Shown here in pieces: positions 18,132 to 59,638 of a DNA stretch of 64,000 nucleotides. The DNA lies in assembly GCA_004556965.1 (NCBI GenBank), contig SFFE01000008.1, forward strand, positions 10,077 through 74,076, written 5' to 3'. The notes below the pieces were generated by a model. That model was not told the DNA's origin. It ran no database searches and saw nothing but the letters and a program-made list of their open reading frames with translations. Both the position numbers and the translations under genes were made by a program. How positions within the stretch are numbered: the first letter of the stretch is position 1; the number at the start of each line of letters is the position of its first letter. The stretch is from Clostridiales bacterium. GTDB taxonomy: Bacteria > Bacillota > Clostridia > Oscillospirales > Oscillospiraceae.

Positions 18132-19001
18132 GTGTTTTCGGGGGCGAGCGCCATGAACGGCAGCGGACAAGGGGAGTTTTTTCTCCCGAAGCGCCGGCTC
18201 GACACGCACAAGGGCGACTATGGCCGCCTGCTCATCATCGGCGGCAGCGTGGGCTATACCGGCGCGCCGACGCTCTGCGCCAGAGCCGCCGTGCGCAGCG
18301 GAGCGGGGCTGGTGTATCTGGGTGTTCCGGCGGATATCTACGCCATCACGGCGGTGAAAAACGACGAGGCGATGCCGTTTCCGCTCGCATGTGAGGACGG
18401 GAAGCTCTCCGCCGCAGCGGTGGACGCGATCCTGGAGCGGCTGGCGGCATGCGATGTGTGCGTGATCGGCCCCGGTCTCGGCCGGAGCGACGCGCTGACG
18501 GCGCTCGTCCGGCGTGTGGTGCGGGAGTCCGGAATTCCCATCGTCGCGGATGCGGACGCGCTGTTTGCGCTCGCGCAGGACACAGCGGTGCTGGATTGTG
18601 CGCGTGCGCCGGTGATTCTGACGCCGCACGAGGGCGAGTTCCGGCGGCTGTACGGGGAGAGCGGCGGCGACCGTGCAGCGGAAGCGTCCCGGTTTGCTGT
18701 GGAGCACGGCTGTACGGTTGTGCGCAAAGGGCCGGAGACGGTCTGCGCCTTTCCAGACGGGGAGACGGTGTGTCTGCGCGTGGGCAACCCCGGCATGGCG
18801 AAAGGCGGCAGCGGCGACGTGCTCGCCGGGATTCTCGGCGCTTTCGTGTGCCAGCTTCCCATGAAGCGCGCGGTGCAGACGGCGGTGTGGGTACACGGCG
18901 CGGCGGGCGACCGCTGCGCAGCGAAGTTTGGCGAATACGCAATGACGCCGGCAGACCTGATCGAGGCGCTGCCGGAGGTCACAAAACCATTGATTCGATA
19001 G
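18132..19001 (+). CDS. nnrD: ADP-dependent NAD(P)H-hydrate dehydratase (YjeF C-terminal family)
   Basis: HKGDYGRLLIIGGS, carbohydrate-kinase fold and GSGDVLAG motif. Confidence 0.85.
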   Translation: MFSGASAMNGSGQGEFFLPKRRLDTHKGDYGRLLIIGGSVGYTGAPTLCARAAVRSGAGLVYLGVPADIYAITAVKNDEAMPFPLACEDGKLSAAAVDAILERLAACDVCVIGPGLGRSDALTALVRRVVRESGIPIVADADALFALAQDTAVLDCARAPVILTPHEGEFRRLYGESGGDRAAEASRFAVEHGCTVVRKGPETVCAFPDGETVCLRVGNPGMAKGGSGDVLAGILGAFVCQLPMKRAVQTAVWVHGAAGDRCAAKFGEYAMTPADLIEALPEVTKPLIR

Positions 19002-35427: not shown

Positions 35428-35472
35428 TGGAGCTGCTGGGCAGATTCGAACTGCCGACCTCATCCTTACCAA
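35428..35472 (-). repeat. 45-bp duplicate of the tRNA-Thr 3' half (anticodon loop to CCA); distal att site of the island
   Basis: Identical to 42416-42460. Sequences diverge immediately outside both copies. Confidence 0.9.
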
Positions 35473-35596: not shown

Positions 35597-35639
35597 GTAG
35601 TGGTTTTTCGTGTATGTAGTGGTTTTTGTAGTGGTTTTT
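35597..35639 (+). repeat. three direct copies of GTAGTGGTTTTT (candidate integrase arm-type sites, left arm)
   Basis: Copies at 35597-35608, 35616-35627 and 35628-35639. Two more lie at the other island end. Confidence 0.6.
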
Positions 35640-35641
35640 CT

Positions 35642-35868
35642 GGAGCGGCTCACAGACGCACCAGGGCGCGCAGCCGCTCCAGGATCGCGCAGGCCGCCAG
35701 GGCGCAGCCAGAGGCCAGCAGGGTCTCACATGCTGCCGGAGCGGCTCACAGGCGCACCAGGGCGCGCAGCAGCCGCTCCAGGATCACACAGGCCGCCAGG
35801 GCGCAGCCGGAGGCCAGCAGCGTCTCACATGCTGCCGGAGCGGCTCACAGGCGAACCAGGGCGCTCCC
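35642..35868 (+). repeat. tandem repeat array A (family 1: 96 + 99 bp units plus a partial unit)
   Basis: Units start with GGAGCGGCTCACAG at 35642, 35738 and 35837. Each contains GGAGCGGCT...AGCCGCTCC inverted 9-mers. Confidence 0.9.
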
Positions 35869-35900: not shown

Positions 35901-37094
35901 TCATGCCTGTTTTTCTTTCAAAGCCTCCCGGAATACCTCACCCGCGCGCTTTATGCTTTCTTGGTCTGCATGTGTGTACATGCGCAGCGTTACGGCCTTG
36001 TCACTATGCCCCAGCGCCTCCGATACAGATGCAATGTCAGCGCCGTTTGTGATCGCTACAGAGGCGAAAGAATGACGCAGCTTGTGCGGGTGCATACCCT
36101 GCACGCCGTAGCGCTCACCAAACTTGGAAAAGTAGCGCGTAGGGCTTTGCGGGTGCATAGGTTCATAGCTGCCCTGTTTAGTGAACACGTAAACGCTCAC
36201 CGCGCTTTCACTCTGCTGCTGTCTGTGCTGCCGGAGCAGGGGCAGCAGCGCTGCACTAAAATACACTGTGCGCTCCCTTCCGTTTTTGGGGGTATCAAGA
36301 TACACGCCCTTTTCCGGGGTGTAACACAGATTGCCTTTGATGGTAATGGAGCGGCTTTCCATGTCAATATCTTCCCAGCGCAGCGCGCAGCACTCGCCGC
36401 GCCGGATTCCTGTTTCAAGCAGCAGAGAAACATATAACCGCCATTGGAGCGGCTCACCCTCCAGGCATTGCAGGATATAGGAAAGTTCATCAGCCGTGAA
36501 AGCGTCAACCTCACCCCCGGTCTTTTCACCCTTGCGGGGCTTTGGGCGCTCGACCTTGTCCATTGGGTTGCGCGGGATCGCGTCATTTAGATACGCCATT
36601 TTGAAAAACGTTGACAGCAGCGAATAGTGTTTTATAACCGTAGCGTGTGCAAGTCCTTCCCTTTGCATGGAGAGCAGCAGCGCGGAAATATTCGCGGGTG
36701 TAATGTCCGGCATTTTCAGATCCCCTATAGCGGGGTAAATGCGGTTGTTTAGGCATTGCTGCCATACTGTGCGCGTGTTCTCGCTGATAGAAACGGCCTT
36801 TGACGGCATGAAAACGTTTTCCCCGTATTCCTTGAAGGTCTGCACCTTTGCGGCCTCGCGCAGCCGCTCCCGCGCCAATTCCTTTTTATCCTCGCGCCCC
36901 AGGGCAGCGCCTGCCTGCACTTGTCTTTCAAAGTCACGCGCAGCCTTGTTTAATTCGCGCTCGATTGTGCGCTTGCTCCAGCCATCAGCCGGATACCAGC
37001 GCTTGTAAACCTTGGATTTCCCGCGCCCCCGGCTCACGCCGATTTCATAAAACAGGACACCGGATTTAGTGTATTTTTCCCGGATTGATGCCAT
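35901..37094 (-). CDS. int: tyrosine site-specific integrase
   Basis: C-terminal catalytic R..HKLRHSFAS...LGH...Y motifs. GGAGG RBS before the ATG at 37094. Confidence 0.9.
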   Translation of the reverse strand: MASIREKYTKSGVLFYEIGVSRGRGKSKVYKRWYPADGWSKRTIERELNKAARDFERQVQAGAALGREDKKELARERLREAAKVQTFKEYGENVFMPSKAVSISENTRTVWQQCLNNRIYPAIGDLKMPDITPANISALLLSMQREGLAHATVIKHYSLLSTFFKMAYLNDAIPRNPMDKVERPKPRKGEKTGGEVDAFTADELSYILQCLEGEPLQWRLYVSLLLETGIRRGECCALRWEDIDMESRSITIKGNLCYTPEKGVYLDTPKNGRERTVYFSAALLPLLRQHRQQQSESAVSVYVFTKQGSYEPMHPQSPTRYFSKFGERYGVQGMHPHKLRHSFASVAITNGADIASVSEALGHSDKAVTLRMYTHADQESIKRAGEVFREALKEKQA

Positions 37095-37466
37095 ATATTG
37101 AGACCTCCAGAAAGAAAAGATAAAAAAGGGGTATTGACATCGGTCACGATTCAAGTATAATAGACGGCAAAGCAAGATGCAAGATATTTAATCACAATTG
37201 CAGACTTGCGGCGGGAGATTCCCGTACAATCAGAGCCGAGAGCCTTGAGGGCCGAGGGCCTATAATGTTACCACGTTATAGGTATGCCCTAAGGACAACA
37301 ACAAGAGCCAGTGCCTAAGTGCCAGAGCCTATAACGTTCATTGCGTGATAGGTGCAGCTAGGCCAGGCAATTATAAATCCGGCCAGCGCTCCAGCAGCCC
37401 GCGCCACGAACAAAAAACGCTTTGCGTAGTCGTGGTATGGTCGGCATATTGTGAGCGAGAGCCTTT

Positions 37467-37524
37467 GAGCGAGAGCCACTGACAACGCAATGCAGCGTGT
37501 TGTCAGTGGTTCTCGCTCTTTTTG
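37467..37524 (+). terminator. 20-bp-stem hairpin plus T5 immediately upstream of the xis-rep RBS (terminator/attenuator)
   Basis: GAGCGAGAGCCACTGACAAC / GTTGTCAGTGGTTCTCGCTC (one G-U position) followed by TTTTTG. Confidence 0.7.
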
Positions 37525-37557: not shown

Positions 37558-37758
37558 ATGAACAAAGCACCATTCCAGAAAATCACAGAGGCCAGCAAAA
37601 CAACTGGGCTTTCGCAGTCGTTCCTCCGCAAAGGCTGCAAGGCCGGGAGCGTGCCGCATATCGTGAGCGGCAACGTGTATTACATTGATGTGGAGCGGCT
37701 GCTTGAGCGGCTGCGCACGTCGCCGGAGGCGTTCAGCGCCGTGCAAGGGGGTAAATAA
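37558..37758 (+). CDS. xis: excisionase/MerR-like HTH DNA-binding protein
   Basis: 66 aa with HTH block ITEASKTTGLSQSFLRKGCKAG. AAAGGAG RBS. Stop overlaps the rep ATG. Confidence 0.65.
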   Translation: MNKAPFQKITEASKTTGLSQSFLRKGCKAGSVPHIVSGNVYYIDVERLLERLRTSPEAFSAVQGGK

Positions 37759-38504
37759 TGCCCAGGACACGAAAGGTAAAACGAGTGGAGGCGGGGCAGC
37801 TTGTGAAGATCACCACATACACACAAGTCTTTCCACAGGATCAACCGGAGCACCGCGCCGCAAAGGCCAAAGCGACAAACGCCGCCCGGCAGCGCATAAA
37901 CGACAAGTGCTCATATGAAAAGCTGGAGGAGCGGCTATACGCGAATTTCACCAGCGCGGATTATGTCGTTACCCTCACCTATGACGAACAGCACCAGCTC
38001 ACGAAATGGAAGTACATTCGCGCAGCTATGGCGAATTTCCTCAAACGCTTGCGCTATGCGCGCGGAAAGCGCGGGGAGACCTTGCGTTATATCTATGTAA
38101 CGGAGGGGCTGCACGGAGACAAGCGCGTTCATCATCATATGGTTATCAATGCACCCGGCACAGGCGTTGACATTCTGGAAGAGGTCAAAGCCTGCTGGAG
38201 AGAGGGAGCGGTAACAAAAGTGGAGCGGCTTGACATGCTTTCCCTTGGAGCGCTTTCAAAGTATCTCACAAAGGAAAACGTAGAGACCGGGCGCGCCTTT
38301 AAGGGGTCTCATTCCTGGATTGCCTCGCACAATCTGAAAGCGCCAAAGATAACATACGAATTTAACGACATTGGCAAAGTACCATTTGCACCGCCCGGCG
38401 CGCATGTGATCGCCTCCGAAAGCATGAAAACAGACAACGGCTTTGGAAGTTACACATACTTGAAGTATATTCGCGCCGGAGAGCAGCCGCAGGCGAACAC
38501 ATAA
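37758..38504 (+). CDS. rep: HUH-superfamily rolling-circle replication initiator-like protein
   Basis: Motif 1 VVTLTYD, HUH motif HHHMVIN and Tyr motif LSKYLTKE. 248 aa. Paralogue of 55862..56608. Confidence 0.7.
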   Translation: MPRTRKVKRVEAGQLVKITTYTQVFPQDQPEHRAAKAKATNAARQRINDKCSYEKLEERLYANFTSADYVVTLTYDEQHQLTKWKYIRAAMANFLKRLRYARGKRGETLRYIYVTEGLHGDKRVHHHMVINAPGTGVDILEEVKACWREGAVTKVERLDMLSLGALSKYLTKENVETGRAFKGSHSWIASHNLKAPKITYEFNDIGKVPFAPPGAHVIASESMKTDNGFGSYTYLKYIRAGEQPQANT

Positions 38505-38730: not shown

Positions 38731-39130
38731 CGGAGCGGCTTTGCATCAGCTTTTCAGAGGCCAGCGCCGCCGCGCTTGTGCCCAATTCGGACACGCCGGA
38801 GCGCAGCCGCTCCAGGATCGCGCAGAGCGCACAAGGGCGCGCAGCCGCTCCAGGCCGCCCCAGGGGGAGCACCCCTCCCCCGGTCAAGAGGCGCGCTCAT
38901 GCCGCCAGCGCCGATATACCCCCGAAGTATTATTTTTTTCTCATATACGCGGAATAAACAAAGCGCGCAGGCCGCATGTGTGATTCATGCGCGCGTGATC
39001 GCGCAGGCCGTCCAGATCGCACCAGGGAGCGCAGCCGCTCCAGGATCACAGAGGCCGCCAGGGCGCAGCGGAGGCCAGCAGGGTCTCACACGCTGCCGGA
39101 GCGGCTCACAGAGCACAGCAGCCGCTCAAT
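38731..39130 (+). repeat. repeat array B (family 1, degenerate and interrupted)
   Basis: Recognisable unit pieces (GGAGCGGCT, GCAGCCGCTCCAGGATC, GGCCAGCAGGGTCTCACA) at 38731-38875 and 38995-39130. Confidence 0.75.
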
Positions 39131-39157: not shown

Positions 39158-39631
39158 ATGAACGACAAAAAGAAAATCAAAGCGCAGGCTTTCACCCTTG
39201 AGGTTGACGGCAAAAAGAGCACGTACCGCCTCACAAAAACAAGGCCGTCCATGATTCTGTATTTCGAGCACAAAGACGTTTACAGCGACCAGGGCACGAC
39301 AAAATGTGAGCAGCGCAAGGCTGCCGCTTTCCTGGACGCAGCCTTTGCGCACATGGAAGAGATTGCGCCGGAGCACAAGCGCGCGATATTGTCTGATTAT
39401 GGCCTTGTAGAGGTCGAGCAGCAGGCCGCGCCCGTGGAATGGTTGGAGGGGGTCGGAATCATGCCCCGCGTGAAGAATAACCGCATTGTCTGCCCCACTT
39501 GCCAGCGCGTGACGGAGCAGAGAGTAACGCCAGACGCGGAGGCTGACAATTGGCCTTTCGTCTGTCCGTATTGCAACACGGGGCATTATATCAGCTTTAT
39601 TGGGGAAAACGTTGAAGTGCCAGAGCCGTAA
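39158..39631 (+). CDS. hypothetical protein with C-terminal CxxC...CxxC zinc ribbon
   Basis: 157 aa with AGAGAGG RBS. CPTCQ...CPYCN motifs. Confidence 0.6.
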   Translation: MNDKKKIKAQAFTLEVDGKKSTYRLTKTRPSMILYFEHKDVYSDQGTTKCEQRKAAAFLDAAFAHMEEIAPEHKRAILSDYGLVEVEQQAAPVEWLEGVGIMPRVKNNRIVCPTCQRVTEQRVTPDAEADNWPFVCPYCNTGHYISFIGENVEVPEP

Positions 39632-39667: not shown

Positions 39668-40115
39668 GCAGCCGCTCCAGGATCGCGCAGGCGCACCAGG
39701 CGCAGCCGGAGGCCAGCAGCGCCTCACATGCTGCCGGAGCGGCTCACAGACGCACCAGGGAGCGCAGCAGCCGCTCCAGGATCGCGCAGGCCGCCAGGGC
39801 GCAGCCGGAGGCCAGCAGGGTCTCACATGCTGCCGGAGGACGCCCAGGGCGCACCAGGGAGCGCAGCAGCCGCTCCAGGATCGCACAGGCCGCCAGACGC
39901 AGCCGGAGGCCAGCAGCGTCTCACGTGCTGCCGGAGGCCACCCAGGGCGCACCAGGGAGCGCAGCAGCCGCTCCAGGATCGCAGAGGCCGCCAGGGAGCA
40001 GCGCAGGCCAGCAGCGCCTCACATGCTGCCGGAGCGGCTCACAGGCGCACCAGGGAGCGCAGCAGCCGCTCAGACCTCCGGTGATTCTCAGGGCGCAGCT
40101 CCGAGCGGCTCACAG
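39668..40115 (+). repeat. repeat array C (four family-1 units of 96/99/98/98 bp plus one family-2 unit)
   Basis: Units start with GCAGC(AGC)CGCTCCAGGATC at 39668, 39764, 39863 and 39961. A family-2 unit starts at 40059. Confidence 0.9.
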
Positions 40116-40128
40116 CATACATAGAGCT

Positions 40129-40290
40129 ATCCCCCCCTTGTTCCTTGCGGAGCACAAGCGGACGGCCCTAGCGGCGGTGTTAGGTATTTCCAAATCCGCT
40201 GAAAAAATTCGCCGGGGGGGGATCGCGCGCGACAGGATAAAACCACGCCCGCGTGCCACGGGTTATATTCGCGCGGGTACACTTAAGGGC
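40129..40290 (+). other. conserved non-coding block homologous to the prophage HNH-terS intergenic region (57217-57378)
   Basis: Shared blocks are ATCCCCCCC, GGCGGTGTTA, GAAAAAtTCG..GGGGnGGGGATCGCnCGCGCGACA, CGCCCGCGnGCCACGGG and TCGCGCGGGnACA. The C-run/G-run helix is conserved. Confidence 0.8.
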
Positions 40291-40384: not shown

Positions 40385-40898
40385 CCCAGGACGCACGGCA
40401 GCCACGCAGCCGCTCAGACCTCTGGTGATCTCCAGGGCGCAGCTCCGAGCGGCTCACAGAGCCCAGGAGCGGGCCCAGGTTGCATAGCAGCCACGCCCTT
40501 TGGTGATCTCCAGAGCGCAGCTCCGAGCGGCTCACAGAGCCCAGGGCAAGCCCAGGACGCACGGCAGCCGCTCAGCCGCTCAGCCGCTCAGACCTCTGAT
40601 GATCTCCAGGGCGCAGCTCCGAGCGGCTCACAGAGCCCAGGAGCGGGCCCAGGTTGCACAGCAGCCATGCAGCCGCTCAGACCTTCGGTGATTTCCAGGG
40701 CGCAGCTGGAGCGGCTCACAGAGCCCAGGAACGGGCCCAGGACGCACAGCAGCCACGCAGCCGCTCAGACCTCTGGTGATCCTCAGAGCGCAGCTCTGAG
40801 CGGCTCACAGAGCCCAGGAGCGGGCCCAGGAAACACGGCAGCCGCTCAGCCGCTCAGACCTTCGGTGATCCTCGCGGCGCAGCTCCGAGCGGCTCACG
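40385..40898 (+). repeat. repeat array D (family 2, about 6 units of roughly 85-100 bp)
   Basis: Unit consensus is GCAGCCGCTCAGACCTCTGGTGATCTCCAGGGCGCAGCTCCGAGCGGCTCACAGAGCCCAGGAGCGGGCCCAGG. Confidence 0.9.
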
Positions 40899-41016
40899 GC
40901 GGGCCACATGGAAACAAAGTGAAAGACCGAGCCAAAAGCGGCCCGGCCTTTCACGTTTCACTTGTGGTGAGGTGGGTTTTCTGTCTTGCCGTCTCGGTGT
41001 GCCAGCACCGGGCAGC

Positions 41017-41307
41017 TTATTGCGGCAAAGTGCGAGCGACCGAATATAGCGCGGAAGTCGCGTGGTTGAGCTGTTCGGCTGATACGTCAATATCACGCTG
41101 GATTACTGACAGCGCAGCTAAGTACATCGGCAACCGAACCGTGAAGGATTTACGAATGCAGTCAGATTCGGAAGATATTGCGTTGTATGCCTCAAGTTCA
41201 AGGTGTTCACACACTAATGCACACGCTTGGCGCGCTTGGTCTAAGGTGCCTGCAACATTTTCAAATTCGGTTGCATAGTCAAGGGCCGCGTTACGATCTA
41301 TTCCCAT
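41017..41307 (-). CDS. hypothetical protein
   Basis: 96-aa ORF immediately downstream of 41320..41595 on the same strand. Confidence 0.45.
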   Translation of the reverse strand: MGIDRNAALDYATEFENVAGTLDQARQACALVCEHLELEAYNAISSESDCIRKSFTVRLPMYLAALSVIQRDIDVSAEQLNHATSALYSVARTLPQ

Positions 41308-41319
41308 GCTTACACCCCC

Positions 41320-41595
41320 TTACGCCACGCAGAAGCGGCGCACAGTTGCCGTCTTGGTGAAGCGCTCGCACAGCTCCGGTGCTGCCTTGCGCAGAGCGGA
41401 AGCGTCGAGCCTGGTGCTGGTTACGAGCTTCCAGGTAACCTTGTAATCCTTCCCGGCCAGTTCATCGACGGCGGCAGCGCTCATGTACGCCTTAATAGCG
41501 TCCTGGATGGCTGCGATCTCTGCATTGAGTTCTTCGGCCATGCGGCGCAGCTCGCGCAGCTCGTTGACCTTGGCTTGCATTTCATTGTTGCTCAT
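41320..41595 (-). CDS. hypothetical coiled-coil protein common in Firmicutes mobile elements
   Basis: 91 aa with AGGAG RBS. N-terminal heptad-rich helix. Confidence 0.55.
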   Translation of the reverse strand: MSNNEMQAKVNELRELRRMAEELNAEIAAIQDAIKAYMSAAAVDELAGKDYKVTWKLVTSTRLDASALRKAAPELCERFTKTATVRRFCVA

Positions 41596-41846: not shown

Positions 41847-42044
41847 ATGCCAGCGAGTAAAGCACAGCAGAAAGCAGTTGCTAAGTATATGGCTGCAAAC
41901 TATGATGAAATCAAGCTAAGAGTGAAAAAAGGAAAACGGGACGAAATCAAAGCCCACGCAGAGCAGCGCGGCGAAAGCGTCAACGCCTTTATAAACCGCG
42001 CCATTGATAGCCAGATGGAGCGCGACAACGAAAGCGCAGAATAG
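41847..42044 (+). CDS. Arc/CopG-type ribbon-helix-helix protein
   Basis: 65 aa. N-terminal beta-strand region, helices and a typical ESVNAFINRAI block. GAGGTG RBS. Confidence 0.65.
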   Translation: MPASKAQQKAVAKYMAANYDEIKLRVKKGKRDEIKAHAEQRGESVNAFINRAIDSQMERDNESAE

Positions 42045-42046
42045 CG

Positions 42047-42273
42047 CGCAGCCGCTCCAGGCGTGATATATTGCGGGGTGTTCTCTGCCGATAGCAGCAG
42101 GGAGCGCCCCGCTTTGCGTGTAGCAGCCGCTCCAGGATCGCGCAGGCCGCCAGGGCGCAGCCGGAGGCCAGCAGGGTCTCACATGCTGCCGGAGCGGCTC
42201 ACAGGGGCACCAGGGCGCGCGCAGCCGCTCCGGGATCACAGAGGCCGCCAGGGCGTGCAGCAGCCGCTCCAGG
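42047..42273 (+). repeat. repeat array E (family 1, about 1.5 units plus an inverted copy of the array-A hairpin sequence)
   Basis: GCAGCCGCTCCAGG motifs. 42083-42108 is the reverse complement of 35860-35885. Confidence 0.8.
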
Positions 42274-42325
42274 CATGAAAAAAGCCGGGGCGGCTTGAGC
42301 CGCTCCGGCGTGTTTTTGGGGGCAT

Positions 42326-42349
42326 GTAGTGGTTTTTGTAGTGGTTTTT
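42326..42349 (+). repeat. two direct copies of GTAGTGGTTTTT (right arm)
   Basis: Copies at 42326-42337 and 42338-42349, in the same orientation as the left-arm copies. Confidence 0.6.
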
Positions 42350-42415
42350 GTGCGGCGTGTCTTTCTGACAGAAAAAGTAAAAACCTCGAATCCGTTGAGA
42401 TTCAAGGCTTTTTTC

Positions 42416-42491
<76 letters not shown>

Positions 42492-44199: not shown

Positions 44200-44308
44200 C
44201 CTTTTAGCTCCTATGATATGATAAAAGGGCAGACTACTCCCTTGTGGTGAGGTGGGTTTTCTGTCTTGCCGTCCAGGTGTTGGTAGCGCCTGGGCGGCTT
44301 TTGTTTTT

Positions 44309-44325
44309 GTGTCCAAATTGGACAC
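44309..44325. repeat. 17-bp palindrome GTGTCCAAATTGGACAC, copy 1
   Basis: Perfect 8+1+8 palindrome, intergenic between int and the upstream gene. Confidence 0.95.
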
Positions 44326-45771: not shown

Positions 45772-45787
45772 TTGAGGCTCTCTCCTC

Positions 45788-45804
45788 TCTGGTTTACGTG
45801 TCCA
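45788..45804. repeat. 17-bp palindrome GTGTCCAAATTGGACAC, copy 2
   Basis: Lies between the repressor stop (45817) and the exonuclease start (45771). Confidence 0.95.
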
Positions 45805-45816
45805 AATTGGACACAA

Positions 45817-51538: not shown

Positions 51539-52997
51539 GGCGTTCAATCTGGCCGATTTCATGCCCGACGCAAATGTGTCCAAATTGGACACGCCAACAC
51601 GCGAGATCAAGATGATCCCGACGCGCAGCATCTTCCCGAACGATAAAAATTTTTATGATACGTCCAATGTGAGCGATTTGATCGATAGCATCCTGCTGCA
51701 TGGGCTGCTTGATCCGCTGACCGTTCGGCCTGCTGGCGACGGAGAGGGCTACATTATCATCTCCGGACACCGGCGGCACAAGGCCATGATGACGATTCTG
51801 GACGACGCGCTTGCAGAAGATCTCACACCGTTTGAGACGGTGCCGTGCTTCATTTCCGAGCCGCGCGACGAGCTGATGGAGGAGCTGATGCTCATCCAAG
51901 CCAACAGCGCGACGCGCGTGCTGACGTCGGCAGAGCTGGCAAAGCAGGCCGAGAAGATAGAGGAACTGCTTTACCGGCTCAAGGAGCAGGGCTATGAGTT
52001 TCCGGGCCGCATGCGTGATCACGTCGCCAAGGCGTGCAACGTGGCGGCGTCCCGGCTTGGGCGGCTGAAAGTGATCCGCGAGAAGCTGATCCCGGAACTC
52101 TACGAGCGGTTTGGGGGCGGTCTGATCCCGGAGAATGCGGCTTACGATGCGGCGCGGATGCCGGAGCGCGACCAGCAAATTCTCGCGCAGCGGCACAAAA
52201 AGGAAATCACGACGTGGGAAGTGAACAACGTAAAGTCGTGGCTTGAGAATATCAACGCCCTCACGGAGTGCAATTATTCCGATGGCGCTTGCGACCAATA
52301 CGAGGTGCGGAGCGGGATGTATCTCGAAAGAGGATACATCCCCTGCGCTGGGAAATGCTGCATGGATTGCTATAGTCTCGTCACCTGCGATAAGGCCTGC
52401 GCCAAGTGCAAGGAACGCCGAAAAGAGCTGATCGACGAACGCGAGCAGCGCGAGGAGAAGGAGCGAGCCGAACGCGAAGCGCGGAATGCCGAAGCTAAGG
52501 CAAGAGCGGATGCACGCGAGCGGGAAGTTTCGAGGCTCTGGCAGCGTCTCGGCGCGGCGCGTGAGGCAGCACATATTGCCGACGAGACATTTTACAATGA
52601 CGTGCTGGAGTGGTACCTGGACGACGAAGAAATTGAGATTATGCTTGTCCGAGAGAGGGGAGGAATCCCGGAGGATGCTTGGTTCGACGAGCCGTTTTCG
52701 GATAGTGCCGAAGATCTCCGAACGGCGGCCGCCGCGCTGCATTGCACGACGGACTACCTCCTCGGCGTATCAGACGAGCCGCAGCCGTCCAGTGCTGGCC
52801 GCTGGCGCTGCGTGGCGGATGGCGAGCTGCCGGACGAGGGGCAGGCCGTCATTATACTTTTACGATTCTCGCAAAATTCCGCTTGGTCGAGCAACACGTC
52901 CGTGTACCACAACGGCAAATTCCGTTTCACGCAGGATTTGGATATGGAACTTCGCGGCGTGCAGTATTGGATGCCGTCGCCGGAGCTTCCGGAGTAA
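51531..52997 (+). CDS. parB: ParB/Srx-domain protein with long C-terminal extension (Cys cluster, E/R coiled coil, HTH-like DYLLG segment, DUF551-like tail)
   Basis: LLDPLTVRP...ISGHRRHKA ParB box. 8-nt overlap with parA. Confidence 0.8.
   Translation: MGKAFNLADFMPDANVSKLDTPTREIKMIPTRSIFPNDKNFYDTSNVSDLIDSILLHGLLDPLTVRPAGDGEGYIIISGHRRHKAMMTILDDALAEDLTPFETVPCFISEPRDELMEELMLIQANSATRVLTSAELAKQAEKIEELLYRLKEQGYEFPGRMRDHVAKACNVAASRLGRLKVIREKLIPELYERFGGGLIPENAAYDAARMPERDQQILAQRHKKEITTWEVNNVKSWLENINALTECNYSDGACDQYEVRSGMYLERGYIPCAGKCCMDCYSLVTCDKACAKCKERRKELIDEREQREEKERAEREARNAEAKARADAREREVSRLWQRLGAAREAAHIADETFYNDVLEWYLDDEEIEIMLVRERGGIPEDAWFDEPFSDSAEDLRTAAAALHCTTDYLLGVSDEPQPSSAGRWRCVADGELPDEGQAVIILLRFSQNSAWSSNTSVYHNGKFRFTQDLDMELRGVQYWMPSPELPE
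51576..51592. repeat. 17-bp palindrome GTGTCCAAATTGGACAC, copy 3 (inside the parB 5' end)
   Basis: Encodes NVSKLDT of ParB. Confidence 0.95.
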
Positions 52998-53007
52998 AGG
53001 AGTAACT

Positions 53008-54090
53008 ATGGAAATAATTGAAATCACGTCCCAGAAGCAGCTTGACGAGCTGCCGCTTGACTACAACGGAAGAATCTGTATCAAATTCGGCACGCCGGAT
53101 GATCGCGCGATTATTCGGCATCGTTATATATATCCCGTCGAGGCGTTGGAGAACAGCAGCGTCGAGGCGTTGGAGAACAGCAGCGTCGTGGCGCGGGGCA
53201 ACAGCAGCGTCGTGGCGCGGGGCAACAGCAGCGTCGAGGCGTGGGAGAACAGCAGCGTCGTGGCGCTGGATAACAGCAGCGTCGTGGCGCGGGGCAACAG
53301 CAGCGTCGTGGCGTTGGAGAACAGCAGCGTCGAGGCGCGGGGCAACAGCAGCGTCGAGGCGCGGGGCAACAGCAGCGTCGAGGCGCACGGCAACAGTAGC
53401 GTCGTGGCGCGGGGCAACAGCAGCGTCGTGGCGCACGGCAACAGTAGCGTCGTGGCGCGGGGCAACAGCAGCGTCGTGGCGCGGGGCAACAGCAGCGTCG
53501 TGGCGCGGGGCAACAGCAGCGTCGTGGCGCACGGCAACAGCAGCGTCGTGGCGTGGGATAACAGCAGCGTCGTGGCGCGGGGCAACAGCAGCGTCGTGGC
53601 GAGGGGGAATACACGGGTGGTTGCTGCATCTAATGCGGCAGCAATTCAACAATCGGGCAACGCTCTCATCGTACATATGCCGCGCACAATTGCTGAATAT
53701 CTCGAATTTTACGAAATCGAGAACGATGGTGAAACCGCGAAGCTGTACAAAGCCGTGCACAAGATCGACGGCATTTATCGCTCCGACTACACGCCCAGAT
53801 GTACATATGCGCCCGGTGAAACAACGGAGGCAGATGCGCTCGACAAAGACCCGGACGAGACATGCGGTCACGGCATCCACATGGCGCATCTTGATTGGTG
53901 TCTTGATTATGGACGCAATTGGAGCGATCTTGCAATCATTGAGGTCGAAACCGAGACCGACGGCATTATCGTACCCCGGAGCGGAAACGGAAAAGTCCGT
54001 GCCGAGCGGTGCAAAATGATTCGAGAAGTTCCGCTTGAAGAGTGCGGCGTATATGGAAAGATTCTCGCAAAACGGAGGAGCAACGCATGA
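53008..54090 (+). CDS. phage protein built of about 20 tandem 8-residue (V[VE]A[RHWL][GED]NSS) repeats plus a C-terminal globular domain
   Basis: AAAGGAG RBS. The 24-nt DNA period at 53137-53616 is in frame with the flanking non-repetitive N- and C-terminal domains. Confidence 0.75.
   Translation: MEIIEITSQKQLDELPLDYNGRICIKFGTPDDRAIIRHRYIYPVEALENSSVEALENSSVVARGNSSVVARGNSSVEAWENSSVVALDNSSVVARGNSSVVALENSSVEARGNSSVEARGNSSVEAHGNSSVVARGNSSVVAHGNSSVVARGNSSVVARGNSSVVARGNSSVVAHGNSSVVAWDNSSVVARGNSSVVARGNTRVVAASNAAAIQQSGNALIVHMPRTIAEYLEFYEIENDGETAKLYKAVHKIDGIYRSDYTPRCTYAPGETTEADALDKDPDETCGHGIHMAHLDWCLDYGRNWSDLAIIEVETETDGIIVPRSGNGKVRAERCKMIREVPLEECGVYGKILAKRRSNA
53137..53616 (+). repeat. about 20 near-perfect 24-nt tandem repeats (GTCGTGGCGCGGGGCAACAGCAGC consensus)
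   Basis: Direct reading. Variation is confined mainly to codons 2, 4 and 5 of each octad. Confidence 0.95.
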
Positions 54091-55090: not shown

Positions 55091-55850
<760 letters not shown>

Positions 55851-55861
55851 GGGGCGACTGA

Positions 55862-56608
55862 TTGGCAAAAACCAAAAAAAAGAAAATCATCGTTGCAGGC
55901 TCTCTTGTGCTGGAGGCGATATATCCGGCGATCAGCGGCAGGGAGGAGCCGAAAGCACGCGCCGCCAAGCGCAAGCTATCATCGGAAGCCCAGCAGCGGA
56001 TGAATCAAAAGTATAGCTATCAAAAGCTGGAACTGATGCTTGCAGCGAACTTTGTACCGGGCGACTTGGTATGCACGATGACTTACGACGATGCGCATCT
56101 GCCCGCCGACCGGAAAGCCGCGGAGGGAAAGCTCAAGTATTTTCGGGCGAAGCTCAAAAAGGATCGTGGCAAGCAGAAAAGCGATATGCGCATGATTTGG
56201 AGCACCGAGCACCGGCACGGAGACGGACGGTGGCACCATCATGTAGTCATCAACGCTACCGGCGACGACTACGATACGATCCTCAAACTCTGGGGGCAGG
56301 GTGAGATCGAGATGCGCCCATTGCGCGCCGACAAGGAGAAAAACTACGAGAGCCTTGCTCGGTACATGGCAAAGGAGGAGCGGGACAAGCTCGGCCAGCG
56401 ATGTTGGAGCTACACCCGCAACTGCAAAAAGCCGGAGATTGAGACTTTCCGCGTGGAATCCGACACGCCGCTGAACCCGCCAAAAGGGTCGATCGTGCTG
56501 GAAAATGCATCGGAGCGTACCCAGTATGCCGAATACAGATATATTAAGTACCTCGCCGCAAAGCCGGTCCGACGCAGGGCGAAGCGCCGAAAGCGACCTC
56601 GCAAGTAG
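55862..56608 (+). CDS. HUH-superfamily Rep-like protein (paralogue of island rep)
   Basis: Motifs VCTMTYD, HHHVVIN and LARYMAKE. 248 aa with a TTG start after a GGGGG RBS. Confidence 0.65.
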   Translation: MAKTKKKKIIVAGSLVLEAIYPAISGREEPKARAAKRKLSSEAQQRMNQKYSYQKLELMLAANFVPGDLVCTMTYDDAHLPADRKAAEGKLKYFRAKLKKDRGKQKSDMRMIWSTEHRHGDGRWHHHVVINATGDDYDTILKLWGQGEIEMRPLRADKEKNYESLARYMAKEERDKLGQRCWSYTRNCKKPEIETFRVESDTPLNPPKGSIVLENASERTQYAEYRYIKYLAAKPVRRRAKRRKRPRK

Positions 56609-56667
56609 CTTTTTATTTATTTTTCTGACTTGAAAATAATATTATTATAGCGACAAAGGAGCTAAAA

Positions 56668-56877
56668 GTGTTGCAAACACAAGAAAAATCGAGTACAATA
56701 AAAGTGCAAGGAGGCCGAGCGATTTGCCCGTCGTGCCATACTAGGACGCAGATCGAGATTCGGCAAGATACAGTCCTGATCAACTATCCGCTGTACTGCA
56801 AAAGATGCAAGCGAACAACGCTTGTGAGATATGGAGAGCCTGAGCCTGAGAGCCTGAGCCAATCGACAATGCATTGA
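56668..56877 (+). CDS. Cys-rich KTR-type zinc-ribbon protein
   Basis: CPSCH...T.I...T.L.N.PLYC.RCK pattern. AAAGGAG RBS with a GTG start. Confidence 0.6.
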   Translation: MLQTQEKSSTIKVQGGRAICPSCHTRTQIEIRQDTVLINYPLYCKRCKRTTLVRYGEPEPESLSQSTMH

Positions 56878-56938
56878 TGTGCATGTTGGTCGGCTCAGGC
56901 TTTTTTGTTTGCTCCGGCCGCCCCGGAGGTGATAGCCC

Positions 56939-57217
56939 GTGACGGCGACCGGGAAAACATTTTCTTACGATTGCGCCCGCTGGAAGCATAAGCGTGCCGC
57001 AATTTTGCGCAGGGACGGCTACATGTGCCGGAACTGCCGACGATACGGACGGCTGACCGAAGCGACGGAAGTGCATCACATCAAGCACGTGGACGAGTAT
57101 CCGGAGCTGGCTTATGTGGATGATAATCTCATCAGCCTGTGCCACGCCTGCCACAATGCGCAGCACCCGGAGAAGGCTGCTGCTTTGAAGCACCCGCGCG
57201 CATATTGCCGCTATTAA
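56939..57217 (+). CDS. HNH endonuclease (terminase-associated type)
   Basis: CRNC...HHI.H......N L..LC..CH..H motif. Immediately upstream of terS. Confidence 0.85.
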   Translation: MTATGKTFSYDCARWKHKRAAILRRDGYMCRNCRRYGRLTEATEVHHIKHVDEYPELAYVDDNLISLCHACHNAQHPEKAAALKHPRAYCRY

Positions 57218-57378
57218 TCCCCCCCCTCTCGTCGACCGCATTGGTCGGCGCTCGTCTTGTGGCGGTGTTAACTCTCTCCAAGCGCGCGGCGAAAAATCGG
57301 GGAGGGGGATCGCACGCGCGACAAAATCAACCCGCGCCCGCGCGCCACGGGATTTTACTCGCGCGGGAACATTAGAGC
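57217..57378 (+). other. structured non-coding block in cos-type position (HNH-terS gap), homologous to island 40129-40290
   Basis: C8...G4AG5 long-range complement. Nested CGCGCGA/TCGCGCG and CCCG/CGGG stems. Confidence 0.75.
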
Positions 57379-57459
57379 AGGCAGCGGACGGCATATTCAC
57401 AAAAACCATCATTTTTTGTGAATAGCGGCCGCGATCCGCGCCGGAAATCTGCAAAAATC

Positions 57460-57476
57460 GTGTCCAATTTGGACAC
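57460..57476. repeat. 17-bp palindrome GTGTCCAATTTGGACAC, copy 4
   Basis: Intergenic, directly upstream of the terS RBS. Confidence 0.95.
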
Positions 57477-57527
57477 GGGAAGGAGGCGCGCTCCATCAGC
57501 AAGCGAGAAGACGACATCCGCGCAAAC

Positions 57528-57881
57528 ATGCGGATTGCCGGAACATACAACGAGGCCTTCGAGCCTGTGATCCGGATGCTGGCCAAAGTCCAGACGGAGC
57601 TGGCGCGCGCCGAAAAGGACTGGCGCGATCCGGAGCTTGGCAACAAGGAGTACGTATCCGAATACACCAACAAGGCCGGCGCGACGAACTTTGTGAAGAA
57701 TCCATACTTTGCGGTGGTGGAAGATCTCCGCCAGGACGTGCTGTCGATCTCTTCGCAGCTCGGCCTGACCCCACAGGGGCAGCGCCGGGTAATGGGCAGC
57801 AATGCCAAGATCAAGCCGCAGGGCAAGTCCAAGTTTGAGACGGCGCTCGCGGCGGCTGCAAAGGCGGCTGGGAAGACGTGA
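57528..57881 (+). CDS. terS: terminase small subunit (P27-family-like)
   Basis: Position and size fit terS. Stop overlaps the terL start. The frame is open upstream to 57426 and a strong GGAAGGAGG at 57478 suggests an earlier non-ATG start. Confidence 0.65.
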
Positions 57882-59638
57882 CGGCACCCATTATCCGCAT
57901 CGGCTCCGGGAAAAATGCGCAGGCGGTCGCGGACTATGTGCAGGGCTGCATCACCGGAAGAATTCCGGCGTGCCCGGAAATCGCGCAGGCGTGCCAGCGA
58001 TTTGCCAACGATCTCAGTGATCCGCGCTGGGACTTCCGCCCACAGGACGCGGAGTACGCCATTGCCCTCATCGAGACGATGCTCTGCCACCAGCAGGGCG
58101 AGCGGCTCGACGCGACGCCGCTGCGCGGCCAGCCGTTCCTGCTGCTGCCGTATCACAAATTCATCGTATACAATCTCCTGGGCTTTTACGTCTCCGGCAC
58201 GCAGGAGCGCCGATTCAAAGAGGCGTTCATCTTCGTACCCCGTAAAAATATTAAGACGACGTTCGCCGCCGCGCTCGCCTGGGCGCTGGCGCTGATCGAG
58301 CGGAAGTCAGGCGCAAAAGTTTACATCGTCGGCGCTGCGCTCCGCCAGGCATTGGAGGCTTTCTCTTTCCTTTCCTACAATGTCCGGCGGCTGGGGCTGA
58401 GCGAGGACGACGACCCAGAGGAGGGGCTGCGGCTCCTGGACAATAACCAGGAGCGCAGCATTTCCGGGGAGATCGGCGACGGCTCAATCTACATCGGCGC
58501 GCTCGCCTCCAACCCGGACGCGCAGGACGCGCTTAACGCCAACATCATCATCGCCGATGAGCTTCATGCCTATAAGTCGCCGAAACAGTACAACGTGCTG
58601 AAGGAGGCAACCAAGGCATACACCAACAAGCTCGTCATCGGCATCACCACCGCTGGCGACCGCGAGAACAGCTTCTGCGGCCACCGCCTGAAATACTGCC
58701 GCAAAATCCTGAACGGCACCGTCACGAGCGCCGACGCCGACGCGCTTTTTATCTACATCGCCTGCGCGCCAGTGGATGAGCACGGCGACGTGGACTACAC
58801 GAATCCGCTGGTGCACCAGCAGGCCAACCCGGCCTATGGCGAGTCCATCCGGCCAAACGACATCATGAACGATGCGCTGCAGGCGCAGAACGACCCGCAG
58901 CAGCGCAAGGACTTTTTTGCGAAATCCCTGAACGTCTACACCACAGCGCTCAAGGCATATTTCAACATCGAGGAATTCCGCGCCAGCGACAGCAAGTACA
59001 ACTGGACGCTTAAGGAGCTGGCCAAGCTGCCCATCAAGTGGTACGGCGGCGCGGACCTCTCCAAGCTGCACGACCTCACCGCGGCTGCATTGTTCGGCAC
59101 CTACCAGGGCGTGGACATCATCGTCCCGCATTGCTGGTTCCCGCGCACCGCAGCGGCGATCAAGGCGGACGAGGATAACATCCCGCTGTTCGGCTGGAAA
59201 GACGACGGGTGGCTCGATATGTGCAACGACAAGTCGATCAACCAGGCTGAGGTCGTCGGCTGGTTCGTGGCCATGCGGAAGATGGGATTTAACATCGTGG
59301 AAGTCGGCCACGACCGGAAATTCTGCCGCGAGTATTTCGGCGGCATGAAAAAGGCGGGCTTTCGCATCATCGATCAGCCGCAGTATTTTTACAAGAAATC
59401 CGAGGGATTCCGGCACATCGAGGCCAGTGCCAAAAATGGAAAGCTGTACTACATGCACGCCGAGCCCTATGAATACTGCGTGGAAAACGTCCGCGCCATC
59501 GAGAAGACGGACGATATGGTGCAGTACGAGAAAGCAGAACCGACTCTGCGCATCGACGTGTTCGACGCCTCCGTTTTTGCGTGCATTCGCGCGCTGGAGA
59601 ACATGGACAAGGGCGGCGCAGAGAAGAGCTGGTACTAA
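57878..59638 (+). CDS. terL: terminase large subunit
   Basis: 586 aa. Walker-type ATPase N-domain and RNaseH-like nuclease C-domain organisation. Syntenic position. Confidence 0.85.

Follow-up and report, generated by a model that had tools for sequence, protein, structure and literature searches.

The stretch of DNA considered here, 64,000 nucleotides (nt) from a Clostridiales bacterium of the family Oscillospiraceae (GenBank assembly GCA_004556965.1, contig SFFE01000008.1, positions 10,077 to 74,076; hereafter the window), carries a small island in a tRNA-Thr gene and a prophage integrated beside tRNA-Pro. The two elements have in common a non-coding block, at 40129-40290 in the island and 57217-57378 in the prophage, from which a preliminary description of the sequence had proposed that the island is a candidate phage satellite carrying the packaging signal of its helper. 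Our analysis supports this proposal in that the block coincides with a mapped cohesive-end (cos) position, is neither a host repeat nor tied to the replication gene found in both elements, and is kept in a conserved family of small elements with an integrase and a Rep protein, to which the island belongs. As judged from sequence comparison, we put at about 0.6 the probability that the block is the cos packaging site of the adjoining HK97-like, HNH-dependent prophage and that the island has a copy of it because it is a small phage satellite.

Gene content of the prophage and the island

The prophage reads, in order, integrase, replication and partition genes, Rep, a Zn-ribbon gene, HNH endonuclease, the shared block, terS, terL, portal, protease and capsid. 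Its HUH Rep gene (55862-56608; identified with Pfam and PHROGs, and a paralogue of the island Rep), the Zn-ribbon open reading frame (ORF) of the Cys_rich_KTR (KTR) family (56668-56877; Pfam E 1.4e-13) and the HNH gene (56939-57217; Pfam HNH, E 6e-11) all lie on the forward strand, as do terS (57528-57881; P27/Terminase_4) and terL (57878-59638), which are followed by the portal, S78 protease and HK97-type major capsid genes up to 62824. As the preliminary description had it, the HNH stop codon at 57217 touches the block and terS begins downstream of it, so that the block sits between the HNH gene and the terS/terL genes of an HK97-type head module, which is where the cos sites of HNH-dependent HK97-like phages are found. 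The exact HNH protein of this prophage is present in 36 blocks of the public collection, and a blastn search of INPHARED with 55862-57900 returned no match.

The island is bounded on the left by attL (35428-35472), an exact 45-nt direct repeat, 100% identical, of the 3' half of the tRNA-Thr(GGT) gene (42416-42491, reverse strand), whose 3' 45 nt form attR (42416-42460); the spacing of the two attachment (att) repeats defines a unit of 6,988 bp, and the same core bounds a related island, L028 (L numbers denote loci recovered in our look-ups). A tyrosine integrase of 397 amino acids (aa), read from MASIREKY... (35901-37094, reverse strand; Pfam Phage_integrase, E 8e-34), is found again in islands L025 and L028. 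On the forward strand follow a 66-aa ORF at the position expected of an excisionase (37558-37758), of which a 65-66-aa counterpart is kept before Rep in all related islands, and an HUH rolling-circle Rep (37758-38504; Pfam PF23343, E 1.6e-15; PHROG 3584, replication initiation protein, E 1.7e-47). The motifs of this Rep are intact (TLTYD, HHHMVIN and YLTK), so that it probably gives the island a replication function of its own; it is 35-36% identical to the prophage Rep (E 3e-41), and a comparison with solved structures gave no match. Downstream lies a 157-aa Zn-ribbon (Cys_rich_KTR) protein (39158-39631, forward strand; Pfam), with a 53% identical ORF in island L026. Of the genes first named for the island, the integrase and the Rep paralogous to that of the phage stand, whereas the ORF called xis matches no family in Pfam, PHROGs or NCBIfam, has no AlpA match and finds nothing among solved structures. 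The absence of capsid and terminase genes is borne out as well: among the island ORFs scanned (the seven longest against Pfam and six against PHROGs) there was no capsid, terminase, lysis or structural family, leaving an element that has an integrase and att sites and is devoid of recognisable capsid, tail, lysis and terminase genes.

The shared block and its distribution

The alignment of 40129-40290 with 57217-57378 that had been made by eye was reproduced with MAFFT, and every segment listed for it was recovered: ATCCCCCCC, GGCGGTGTTA, GAAAAA(T)TCG..GGGGGATCGC.CGCGCGACA, CGCCCGCG.GCCACGGG and TCGCGCGGG.ACA. When either copy was searched against the window by blastn, the other was its sole match (76% identity over 117 nt, E 3e-18), with the next-best matches at E values of at least 0.18. 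Similarly, the pattern C6-N30-38-GGCGNNGNTA occurs at only two sites in the window, the island block and the prophage block, where 0.01 would be expected.

Each copy can be divided into two halves, all on the forward strand. The left half of the prophage block (57219-57281) consists of a C-run (57219-57226), a 33-nt spacer (57227-57259), the 11-mer TGGCGGTGTTA (57260-57270) and TCCAA (57277-57281). Its island counterpart (40131-40193) has a C-run (40131-40137), a 33-34-nt spacer, the 11-mer CGGCGGTGTTA (40172-40182), which is the predicted cohesive end and is followed by GGTATTTCCAAA, and TTCCAA (40188-40193); the cut positions in the island are assigned by homology with mapped phage ends. The right half, a candidate for the part recognised by TerS (cosB-like), spans 57289-57378 in the prophage and 40201-40281 in the island, where it comprises GAAAAA.TCG, a G-run, ATCGCGCGCGACA, CGCCCGCG.GCCACGGG and TCGCGCGGG.ACA. 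Both halves of the presumed helper cos are therefore represented in the island, with 10 of 11 core bases identical, and together they would constitute a packaging signal.

Pattern searches outside the window returned chance matches or nothing. Two exact right-half patterns had no match in IMG/VR, the first of them being too strict, since islands L026 and L028 differ in GCGCGACA; the right-half pattern gave 10 chance matches among 185,579 species genomes, in high-GC genomes outside Clostridia, and 16 chance matches in JGI metagenomes, 0 of which were confirmed by a hidden Markov model (HMM) of the block run with nhmmer. Further true copies could be reached only through protein look-ups, and in these protein-anchored searches the block was confined to the prophage lineage, L051, L030 (with a terS 77% identical and a diverged block) and the island family. 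Near-identical copies of the prophage (L041-L063) come from many gut samples and one NCBI assembly, and in all of these phages the block lies between an HNH-type gene and terS.

Genome ends map to the left half

The case that the left half is a cos site rests on the ends of related phage genomes. Alignment of HNH homologues led to 80 IMG/VR loci with related HNH genes, and in most of them the gap between HNH and terS has a set order: 6-9 C, a variable spacer of 33 nt, an 11-mer (for example CGGCGGGGGGA or CGGCGTGGGTA), ACTTTTTCCAACTC, a ribosome-binding site and terS. Five contigs of 31-37 kb (L118, L129, L144, L158 and L167) stop exactly 33 nt past the C-run. A sixth (L131) passes at +33 directly into Illumina adapter sequence (AGATCGGAAGAGCGTCGTGTAGGGAAAGAGTG), while L132 shows 'AG' at +33, L169 ends at +34 and L139 ends at +44, so that the 11-mer is included. 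Left ends were found in a second scan: L196, L242, L245 and L258 start exactly at ACTTTTTCCAAC, 11 nt past the right-end position, and in L197, L220 and L207 adapter sequence (...CTCTTCCGATCT or ...GTGCTCTTCCGATCT) is fused to the first base of ACTTTTTCCAAC. Contig 014051 (34,066 nt) has both of its ends at the mapped positions, with the 11-mer missing. By our own estimate, chance breakage would place about 0.01 ends in any given 2-nt window per 80 contigs. The retention of adapter at the ends of IMG/VR contigs (L131, L132, L197, L207, L220 and L004) is a flaw of data quality, yet one that marks physical termini.

That contigs end at +33 and again 11 nt further on, with the 11-mer missing, indicates physical termini of DNA molecules whose cohesive end of 11 nt disappears during end repair and is most simply taken as a 3' overhang. 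The cohesive end of HK97 itself is a 10-nt 3' extension, and a short cohesive end (here 11 nt) at a site between the HNH gene and terS is what the cos sites of HNH-dependent HK97-like phages have in common with the present one. The same end geometry is seen in a second, Rep-carrying family (L004/L070 and L024/L082), and the phiRg phages of Ruminococcus gnavus, among them the cultured phiRgIBDN1, have the same left-half architecture, which in phiRgIBDN1 lies upstream of terS. For the prophage of the window, contigs from three independent metagenome samples (L046, L047 and L048; data sets SRR19605716, ERZ28662303 and ERZ940863) begin at 57271 (ACTCTCTCCAAG), the base homologous to the first of ACTTTTTCCAAC. 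Virion DNA of this phage group would accordingly end at set nucleotides, and the left half is very probably the cos of this phage. The cos position first suggested from gene order is in this way corroborated, and the termini mapped in sister phages, like the 57271 starts, fall inside the block. To our knowledge, a cos architecture of C-run, fixed 33-nt spacer, 11-mer and TCCAA has not been described before, although no literature search was aimed at it.

Two other sets of contig ends were considered as termini and rejected: those of L019/L076 overlap by 24 nt at a hairpin and look like an assembler break, and the L049/L050 starts at 57397 lie in a palindrome and are probably an assembler artefact. 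We also observed a mosaic breakpoint at 57271-57277 relative to L051 (3822 onward), rightward of which the two phages are 84-92% identical and leftward of which they are diverged; its location within 6 nt of the cos cut suggests that modules are exchanged at genome ends.

TerS recognition or a replication origin in the right half

The right half has a different distribution. An HMM of it, run with --max, matched only the prophage lineage, L051, L030 (weakly) and the islands (L185 marginally, as that contig ends inside the half), and nothing significant was found in the other ~200 loci. It is absent from 29 loci of Rep-carrying phages with other terS types (L001-L024, L180 and L186-L189); among phages, this addition to the cos nicking region is confined to one terS type. 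Comparisons with the prophage separate the two halves. In L051, the Rep is 40% and the HNH-like protein 46% identical, terS and terL are 90% and 92% identical, only the C-run of the left half is present and the right half is 91% identical. L064 has no Rep, an HNH protein 85% identical, terS and terL at 33% and 64%, the left half present and the right half absent. L002 shares a Rep at 55%, has no match to HNH or terS and a terL at 23%, and both halves are absent. The right half thus appears to go with terS/terL, the left half with HNH and neither with Rep, and the islands keep both halves without HNH or terS genes of their own. At the equivalent place before terS, a Lawsonibacter faecis prophage (L187; GCA_014287675.1), in which the order is Rep-KTR-HNH-terS, has direct repeats, an observation in keeping with a region for TerS binding that takes different forms in different terS types.

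The main alternative is that the right half, or even the whole block, is the double-strand origin of the HUH Rep, either outright or in a dual role, and that island and phage merely have a replicon module of Rep and origin in common, the island being an integrative rolling-circle element that spreads independently of phage packaging. The block does lie downstream of Rep on the same strand in every element, wherever enough of an island was recovered, at 250-400 nt from Rep in L026, L028, L181 and L185, and the right half, with its GC-rich inverted repeat enclosing unpaired stretches rich in AT, resembles many rolling-circle origins. Proteins matching RepB-RCR_reg are also encoded in the related islands, by a 73-aa ORF of L182 and, weakly, by a 64-aa ORF of L026 at the position of an Arc-like ORF in the present island. 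However, the block neither co-occurs nor co-diverges with the PF23343 Rep. Phage Reps that are 55% identical to the prophage Rep (the L002 family, 24 loci) come without any block, and same-family Reps in L180 and L186-L189 (with KTR annotated in L180 and L187) come without the right half, whereas the island Rep is only 35% identical and its block is ~76% identical overall, the right half being far more conserved. In L051 the Rep has been swapped (40%) and the right half kept (91%) together with terS/terL. The left half, for its part, is present in most of the 80 HNH-anchored loci, only three of which have a weak Rep match, and genome ends map there. We therefore consider an origin as the whole explanation of the block rather improbable. 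Given that the right half is found with one terS type and is missing from 29 Rep loci, recognition by TerS is likelier than a Rep origin, and we lean, with a little more than even confidence, towards a cosB-like function.

A family of related islands

Islands related to the one in the window were found in several gut metagenomes. Ranked by the identity of their Rep to the island Rep, they are L025 (93%; the contig ends before the block position), L026/L027 (74%), L028/L029 (51%), L185 (50%) and L181/L182 (44%). Both halves of the block are present in L026, L028 and L181; in L185 the contig ends after the left half and the first part of the right half. L028 has the att core of the present island at both of its ends, and L181/L182 lie in a chromosome beside a tRNA gene. 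No HNH or terminase gene was found in any related island. The parallel gene order first noted, in which Rep, Zn-ribbon ORF and block follow one another in island and prophage alike, holds for this island and can differ in its relatives, the order being Rep-block-KTR in L026 and KTR missing in L028.

What the islands keep of the block are the elements that are conserved among phages, namely the C-run with the distance that separates it from the core, the GGCG of the core and TCCA (TCCAA except in L028), and the spacer sequence varies freely in islands and phages. The cores also pair islands with phages. The GGCGGTGTTA core, in the 11-mer (T/C)GGCGGTGTTA, was confined to this prophage lineage and, among islands, to the present one, L026 and L185, and the GGCGTGGGTA core is that of island L028 and of several phages, L064, L149 and L150 among them. 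The cos module of L185 and its left flank are nearly identical to those of this island even though the Reps are only 50% identical, which indicates exchange between islands. Plasmid relatives of the Rep amounted to six weak matches (27-29% identity) in 34-40-kb non-mobilizable Clostridium and Paraclostridium records.

The existence of this family bears on the possibility that the island is what remains of a prophage in decay, or else a product of recombination, and its cos copy an unused leftover. Such an origin would account for the Rep, the KTR gene and two short non-coding elements that island and adjacent prophage have in common, for their location in the same tRNA cluster and for an island full of tandem repeats. 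It does not sit well with a compact architecture that recurs, with intact ORFs and att repeats, in several samples, with Reps of 44-93% identity and conserved cos elements: recurrent intact islands with diverged Reps and a conserved cos speak for selection rather than decay. Moreover, the island gene order of integrase, small ORF and Rep differs from that of the phage, and the exchange of the cos module with L185 implies active elements. We regard this explanation as quite unlikely.

A further reading is that the block encodes a structured RNA, which might be a small RNA or serve the late operon as its leader or attenuator, and that the island has copied it for regulation. It lies upstream of the late operon, and its nested inverted repeats are conserved; folded from the two window copies with RNAalifold, it even shows apparent compensatory changes in a 5' hairpin. 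With seven diverse copies, however, the covariation term is +0.9 kcal/mol and gives no support, Rfam has nothing relevant at the gathering threshold and no match at E <= 1, and the gene downstream of the block is inconsistent among islands (repeats here, KTR in L026, opposite-strand ORFs in L028). As physical DNA ends also map inside the block, we think an RNA function highly improbable. By the same covariation result, the structural features noted earlier, a long-range complement of C-run and G-run and nested stems, find no support as an RNA or single-stranded fold; more plausibly, the C-run, the G-run and the GC-rich inverted repeats have been conserved as sites that proteins recognise within a two-part cos. 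Finally, a generic host repeat present at many non-phage loci, which had been named as a case that would undo the satellite proposal, is, within the sensitivity of the searches made, close to negligible as an explanation, the window having only two copies, the genome and metagenome scans only chance matches, and the true copies being limited to the phage lineage, L051, L030 and the island family.

A possible satellite life cycle

A conserved island family with intact genes, retained cos elements and cores paired with those of phages is what would be expected of elements that depend on a helper terminase. We therefore think it reasonably probable that the cos copy of the island is functional and that the island is mobilised as a satellite. 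In the cycle that we envisage, induction of the helper would set the process in motion and the island would excise through its integrase. Its HUH Rep would then initiate rolling-circle replication, generating head-to-tail concatemers of the 6,988-bp unit, and the TerS, TerL and HNH proteins of the helper would recognise the island cos and cut it twice, 33 nt past the C-run and 11 nt beyond that point, to give a cohesive end of 11 nt. Since no gene for capsid remodelling is recognisable in the island, about five units might be packaged per helper-size head before the terminal cos cut is made; five times 6,988 bp is 34.9 kb, and the whole-genome contigs of sister phages measure 31-37 kb. In lambda, terminal cos cleavage depends on length. 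Packaging of multimers, which we propose by analogy, is the more tentative part of this scheme, and we hold it at less than even odds.

Several observations pull the other way. The C-run and the core are 35 nt apart in the island and 34 nt apart in the phage, and the island core differs from the phage core at one of 11 bases. For this particular phage no right end (57259) was seen, the contigs of the HNH look-up being the longest ones and all spanning the gap, and the recurrent starts at 57271 could reflect a de Bruijn branch at a mosaic boundary, as L051 diverges within 6 nt. Physical linkage within phages confounds the correlation between halves of the block and particular genes. In addition, an origin for Rep must exist in the islands, and no non-coding segment other than the block and the att flanks was found to be conserved between distant islands, which also speaks for the origin reading. 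No helper was found for the L181-type core, and no repressor or helper-sensing gene was identified on the island. Lastly, there was no contig or read evidence of island DNA cut at cos or in virions; island contigs ending at cos were likewise not found, in a region where tandem repeats break short-read assemblies around the block.

Comparison with known satellites

Cos-type Staphylococcus aureus pathogenicity islands (SaPIs) such as SaPIbov5 are packaged through the helper cos that they carry (PMC5052747). For SaPIbov5 and its helpers phi12 and phiSLT, similarity between island and helper cos governs transfer, and an HK97-like helper needs its HNH protein (PMC5052747; Quiles-Puchalt 2014 as cited in PMC10803314). 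Like the cos-type SaPIs and other cos-type phage-inducible chromosomal islands (PICIs), the present island is chromosomal, has an integrase and a replication gene of its own, lacks a terminase of its own and carries a copy of a helper cos. Unlike them, it resides in a member of the Clostridia (Oscillospiraceae) and is 7 kb in length rather than about 14 kb. PICIs usually have a replication module of the primase/helicase type, in place of which the island has an HUH rolling-circle Rep. A cos-type PICI would be expected to have a size of 10-15 kb and to redirect capsid assembly through Ccm, a protein of the HK97 fold; at 6,988 bp, with no capsid-like match in Pfam or PHROGs and a largest unassigned ORF of 157 aa, the island shows neither property. 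Also in contrast to a SaPIbov5-like PICI, it has no homologue of a Ccm-like capsid protein and no recognisable master repressor, and large repeat arrays flank its cos. No repressor lies beside the integrase, which is the place of the master repressor in the divergent regulatory module of such PICIs and where L028 has an HTH_3 protein.

[quoted passage not shown] PICMIs lie next to fis, encode AlpA, an integrase and a primase, have virulent helpers and replicate in a rolling-circle-like manner; their DNA ends are random (headful-like), and no cos or pac site has been identified in them (PMC10803314). The likeness consists in a minimal gene set and the lack of capsid remodelling, and our concatemer model is borrowed from PICMIs. 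The island differs in lying at tRNA-Thr rather than fis, in having an HUH Rep rather than a primase and a small ORF without an AlpA match, and in possessing a defined cos that matches that of a temperate helper.

P4, a satellite of 11.6 kb, carries the cos of its helper P2 and relies on P2 for terminase and capsid. Its alpha primase-helicase, Sid, Psu and Delta have no counterpart in the island as far as Pfam and PHROGs can tell. The replication initiator of P2, gpA, is an HUH rolling-circle protein, and the Rep of the prophage described here is likewise predicted to be an HUH rolling-circle initiator. The island would thus copy a helper cos in the manner of a cos-type PICI or P4 and be as minimal as a PICMI, without the defining features of each. 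No such element is described for Oscillospiraceae in the literature that we found.

Other features of the two elements

Just inside both ends of the island lie pairs of the 12-nt repeat TGTAGTGGTTTT, two copies at 35615-35639 (forward strand) and a second set of two at 42325-42351. An excised circle would have them on either side of the att core, and they are candidate arm-type sites of the integrase. Directly before the operon of small ORF and Rep is a forward-strand region (37134-37516) made up of a sigma-70 promoter of perfect consensus (37134-37161; TTGACA, 16 nt, TATAAT), a leader and, ~300 nt downstream of the promoter, a terminator with a 20-bp stem (37469-37516), an arrangement that could act as an attenuation or antitermination switch for island induction. 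The right part of the island encodes two small conserved ORFs of 96 and 91 aa (41017-41595, reverse strand) and a 65-aa Arc/ribbon-helix-helix-like regulator (41847-42044, forward strand; PHROG 13890, Arc-like repressor). No defence or cargo gene was detected on the island by PADLOC or NCBIfam.

Roughly a quarter of the island consists of large GC-rich tandem arrays with units of 98-99 nt and 89 nt, which lie on both sides of its cos: a 98-nt array of 4.1 copies to the left (39668-40071, forward strand), with related arrays at 35642-35864, 38801-39127 and 42120-42300, and an 89-nt array of 5.8 copies to the right (40385-40897, forward strand), the repeats of which are found again in L026. Of the 25 copies of the motif GCAGCCGCTC in the window, 24 belong to the island, with a forward-strand orientation in almost every case. 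The arrays recur in related islands, whose assemblies break there; length tuning or protein binding are guesses at what they are for. One repeat unit (39692-39804) resembles the opposite strand of host coding sequence at 18407-18523 (68% over 118 nt, E 5e-6), a similarity that is probably compositional.

Besides the cos block, island and prophage share a second short element (40958-41018 and 44238-44300; 86% over 63 nt, E 6e-11), which is also present in L026. It contains a terminator-like hairpin on the forward strand and a conserved 27-mer, AAGACAGAAAACCCACCTCACCACAAG, on the reverse strand. In the prophage it lies just upstream of the integrase and in the island just downstream of the ORF at 41017-41307; this 96-aa island ORF and the prophage ORF beside the element have no homology.

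In the prophage, the palindrome GTGTCCAA(A/T)TTGGACAC occurs four times (44298-44325, 45787-45814, 51565-51592 and 57449-57476), in intergenic positions or at operon starts, the last copy lying between the cos block and terS, and is not found in the island; a phage regulator probably uses it as an operator. Located between block and terS at 57394-57422 is a perfect inverted repeat, ATTCACAAAAA / TTTTTGTGAAT. An ORF at 53040-53705 contains 19 tandem 24-nt units that encode 8-aa repeats (NSSVVARG-like). At 55091-55850, a region for an N6/N4 methyltransferase seems to be divided between two overlapping ORFs, with a (GA)n tract, read as ERERER, near 55200. The relatives of this methyltransferase are single genes of 186-253 aa, and the split is possibly a frameshift or a phase-variable tract. 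An HUH Rep, usually with a Cys_rich_KTR ORF, is placed just upstream of the HNH/terS module in otherwise different gut phages (L001-L024, L030, L051, L180, L186-L189 and 55862-56877 in the window), and one guess is that the pair serves these phages as a late rolling-circle switch.

Implications

The satellite families described in the literature that we found come from staphylococci, enterococci, streptococci, E. coli and Vibrionaceae, and for the Oscillospiraceae of the gut, which are abundant and for the most part uncultured, it mentions only unspecified or capsid-forming candidates. In its broadest form, our proposal is that the island represents a widespread, undescribed family of minimal cos-type satellites (about 4-7 kb) of temperate HK97-like phages in gut Oscillospiraceae, in which an HUH Rep taken over from that phage group directly yields a rolling-circle concatemer that the helper terminase cuts at the satellite cos, about five units fill an unmodified head, and the large arrays next to cos determine how long a unit is or bind proteins as decoys. 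We offer this extended version as a speculation, and a doubtful one in its full extent. Were it true, elements of 7 kb needing no more than an integrase, a Rep and a copied cos would be very small vehicles of gene transfer riding common gut prophages, and they would probably escape satellite tools keyed to markers for capsid, terminase or primase. For the large group of uncultured gut phages with HNH genes, the analysis provides a cos signature at nucleotide resolution (C-run, 33 nt, 11-nt cohesive end, TCCAA) that is usable for finding genome ends and further satellites. It also suggests a division of labour within such sites, in which the part where cos is nicked travels with HNH and the part that is recognised travels with terS.

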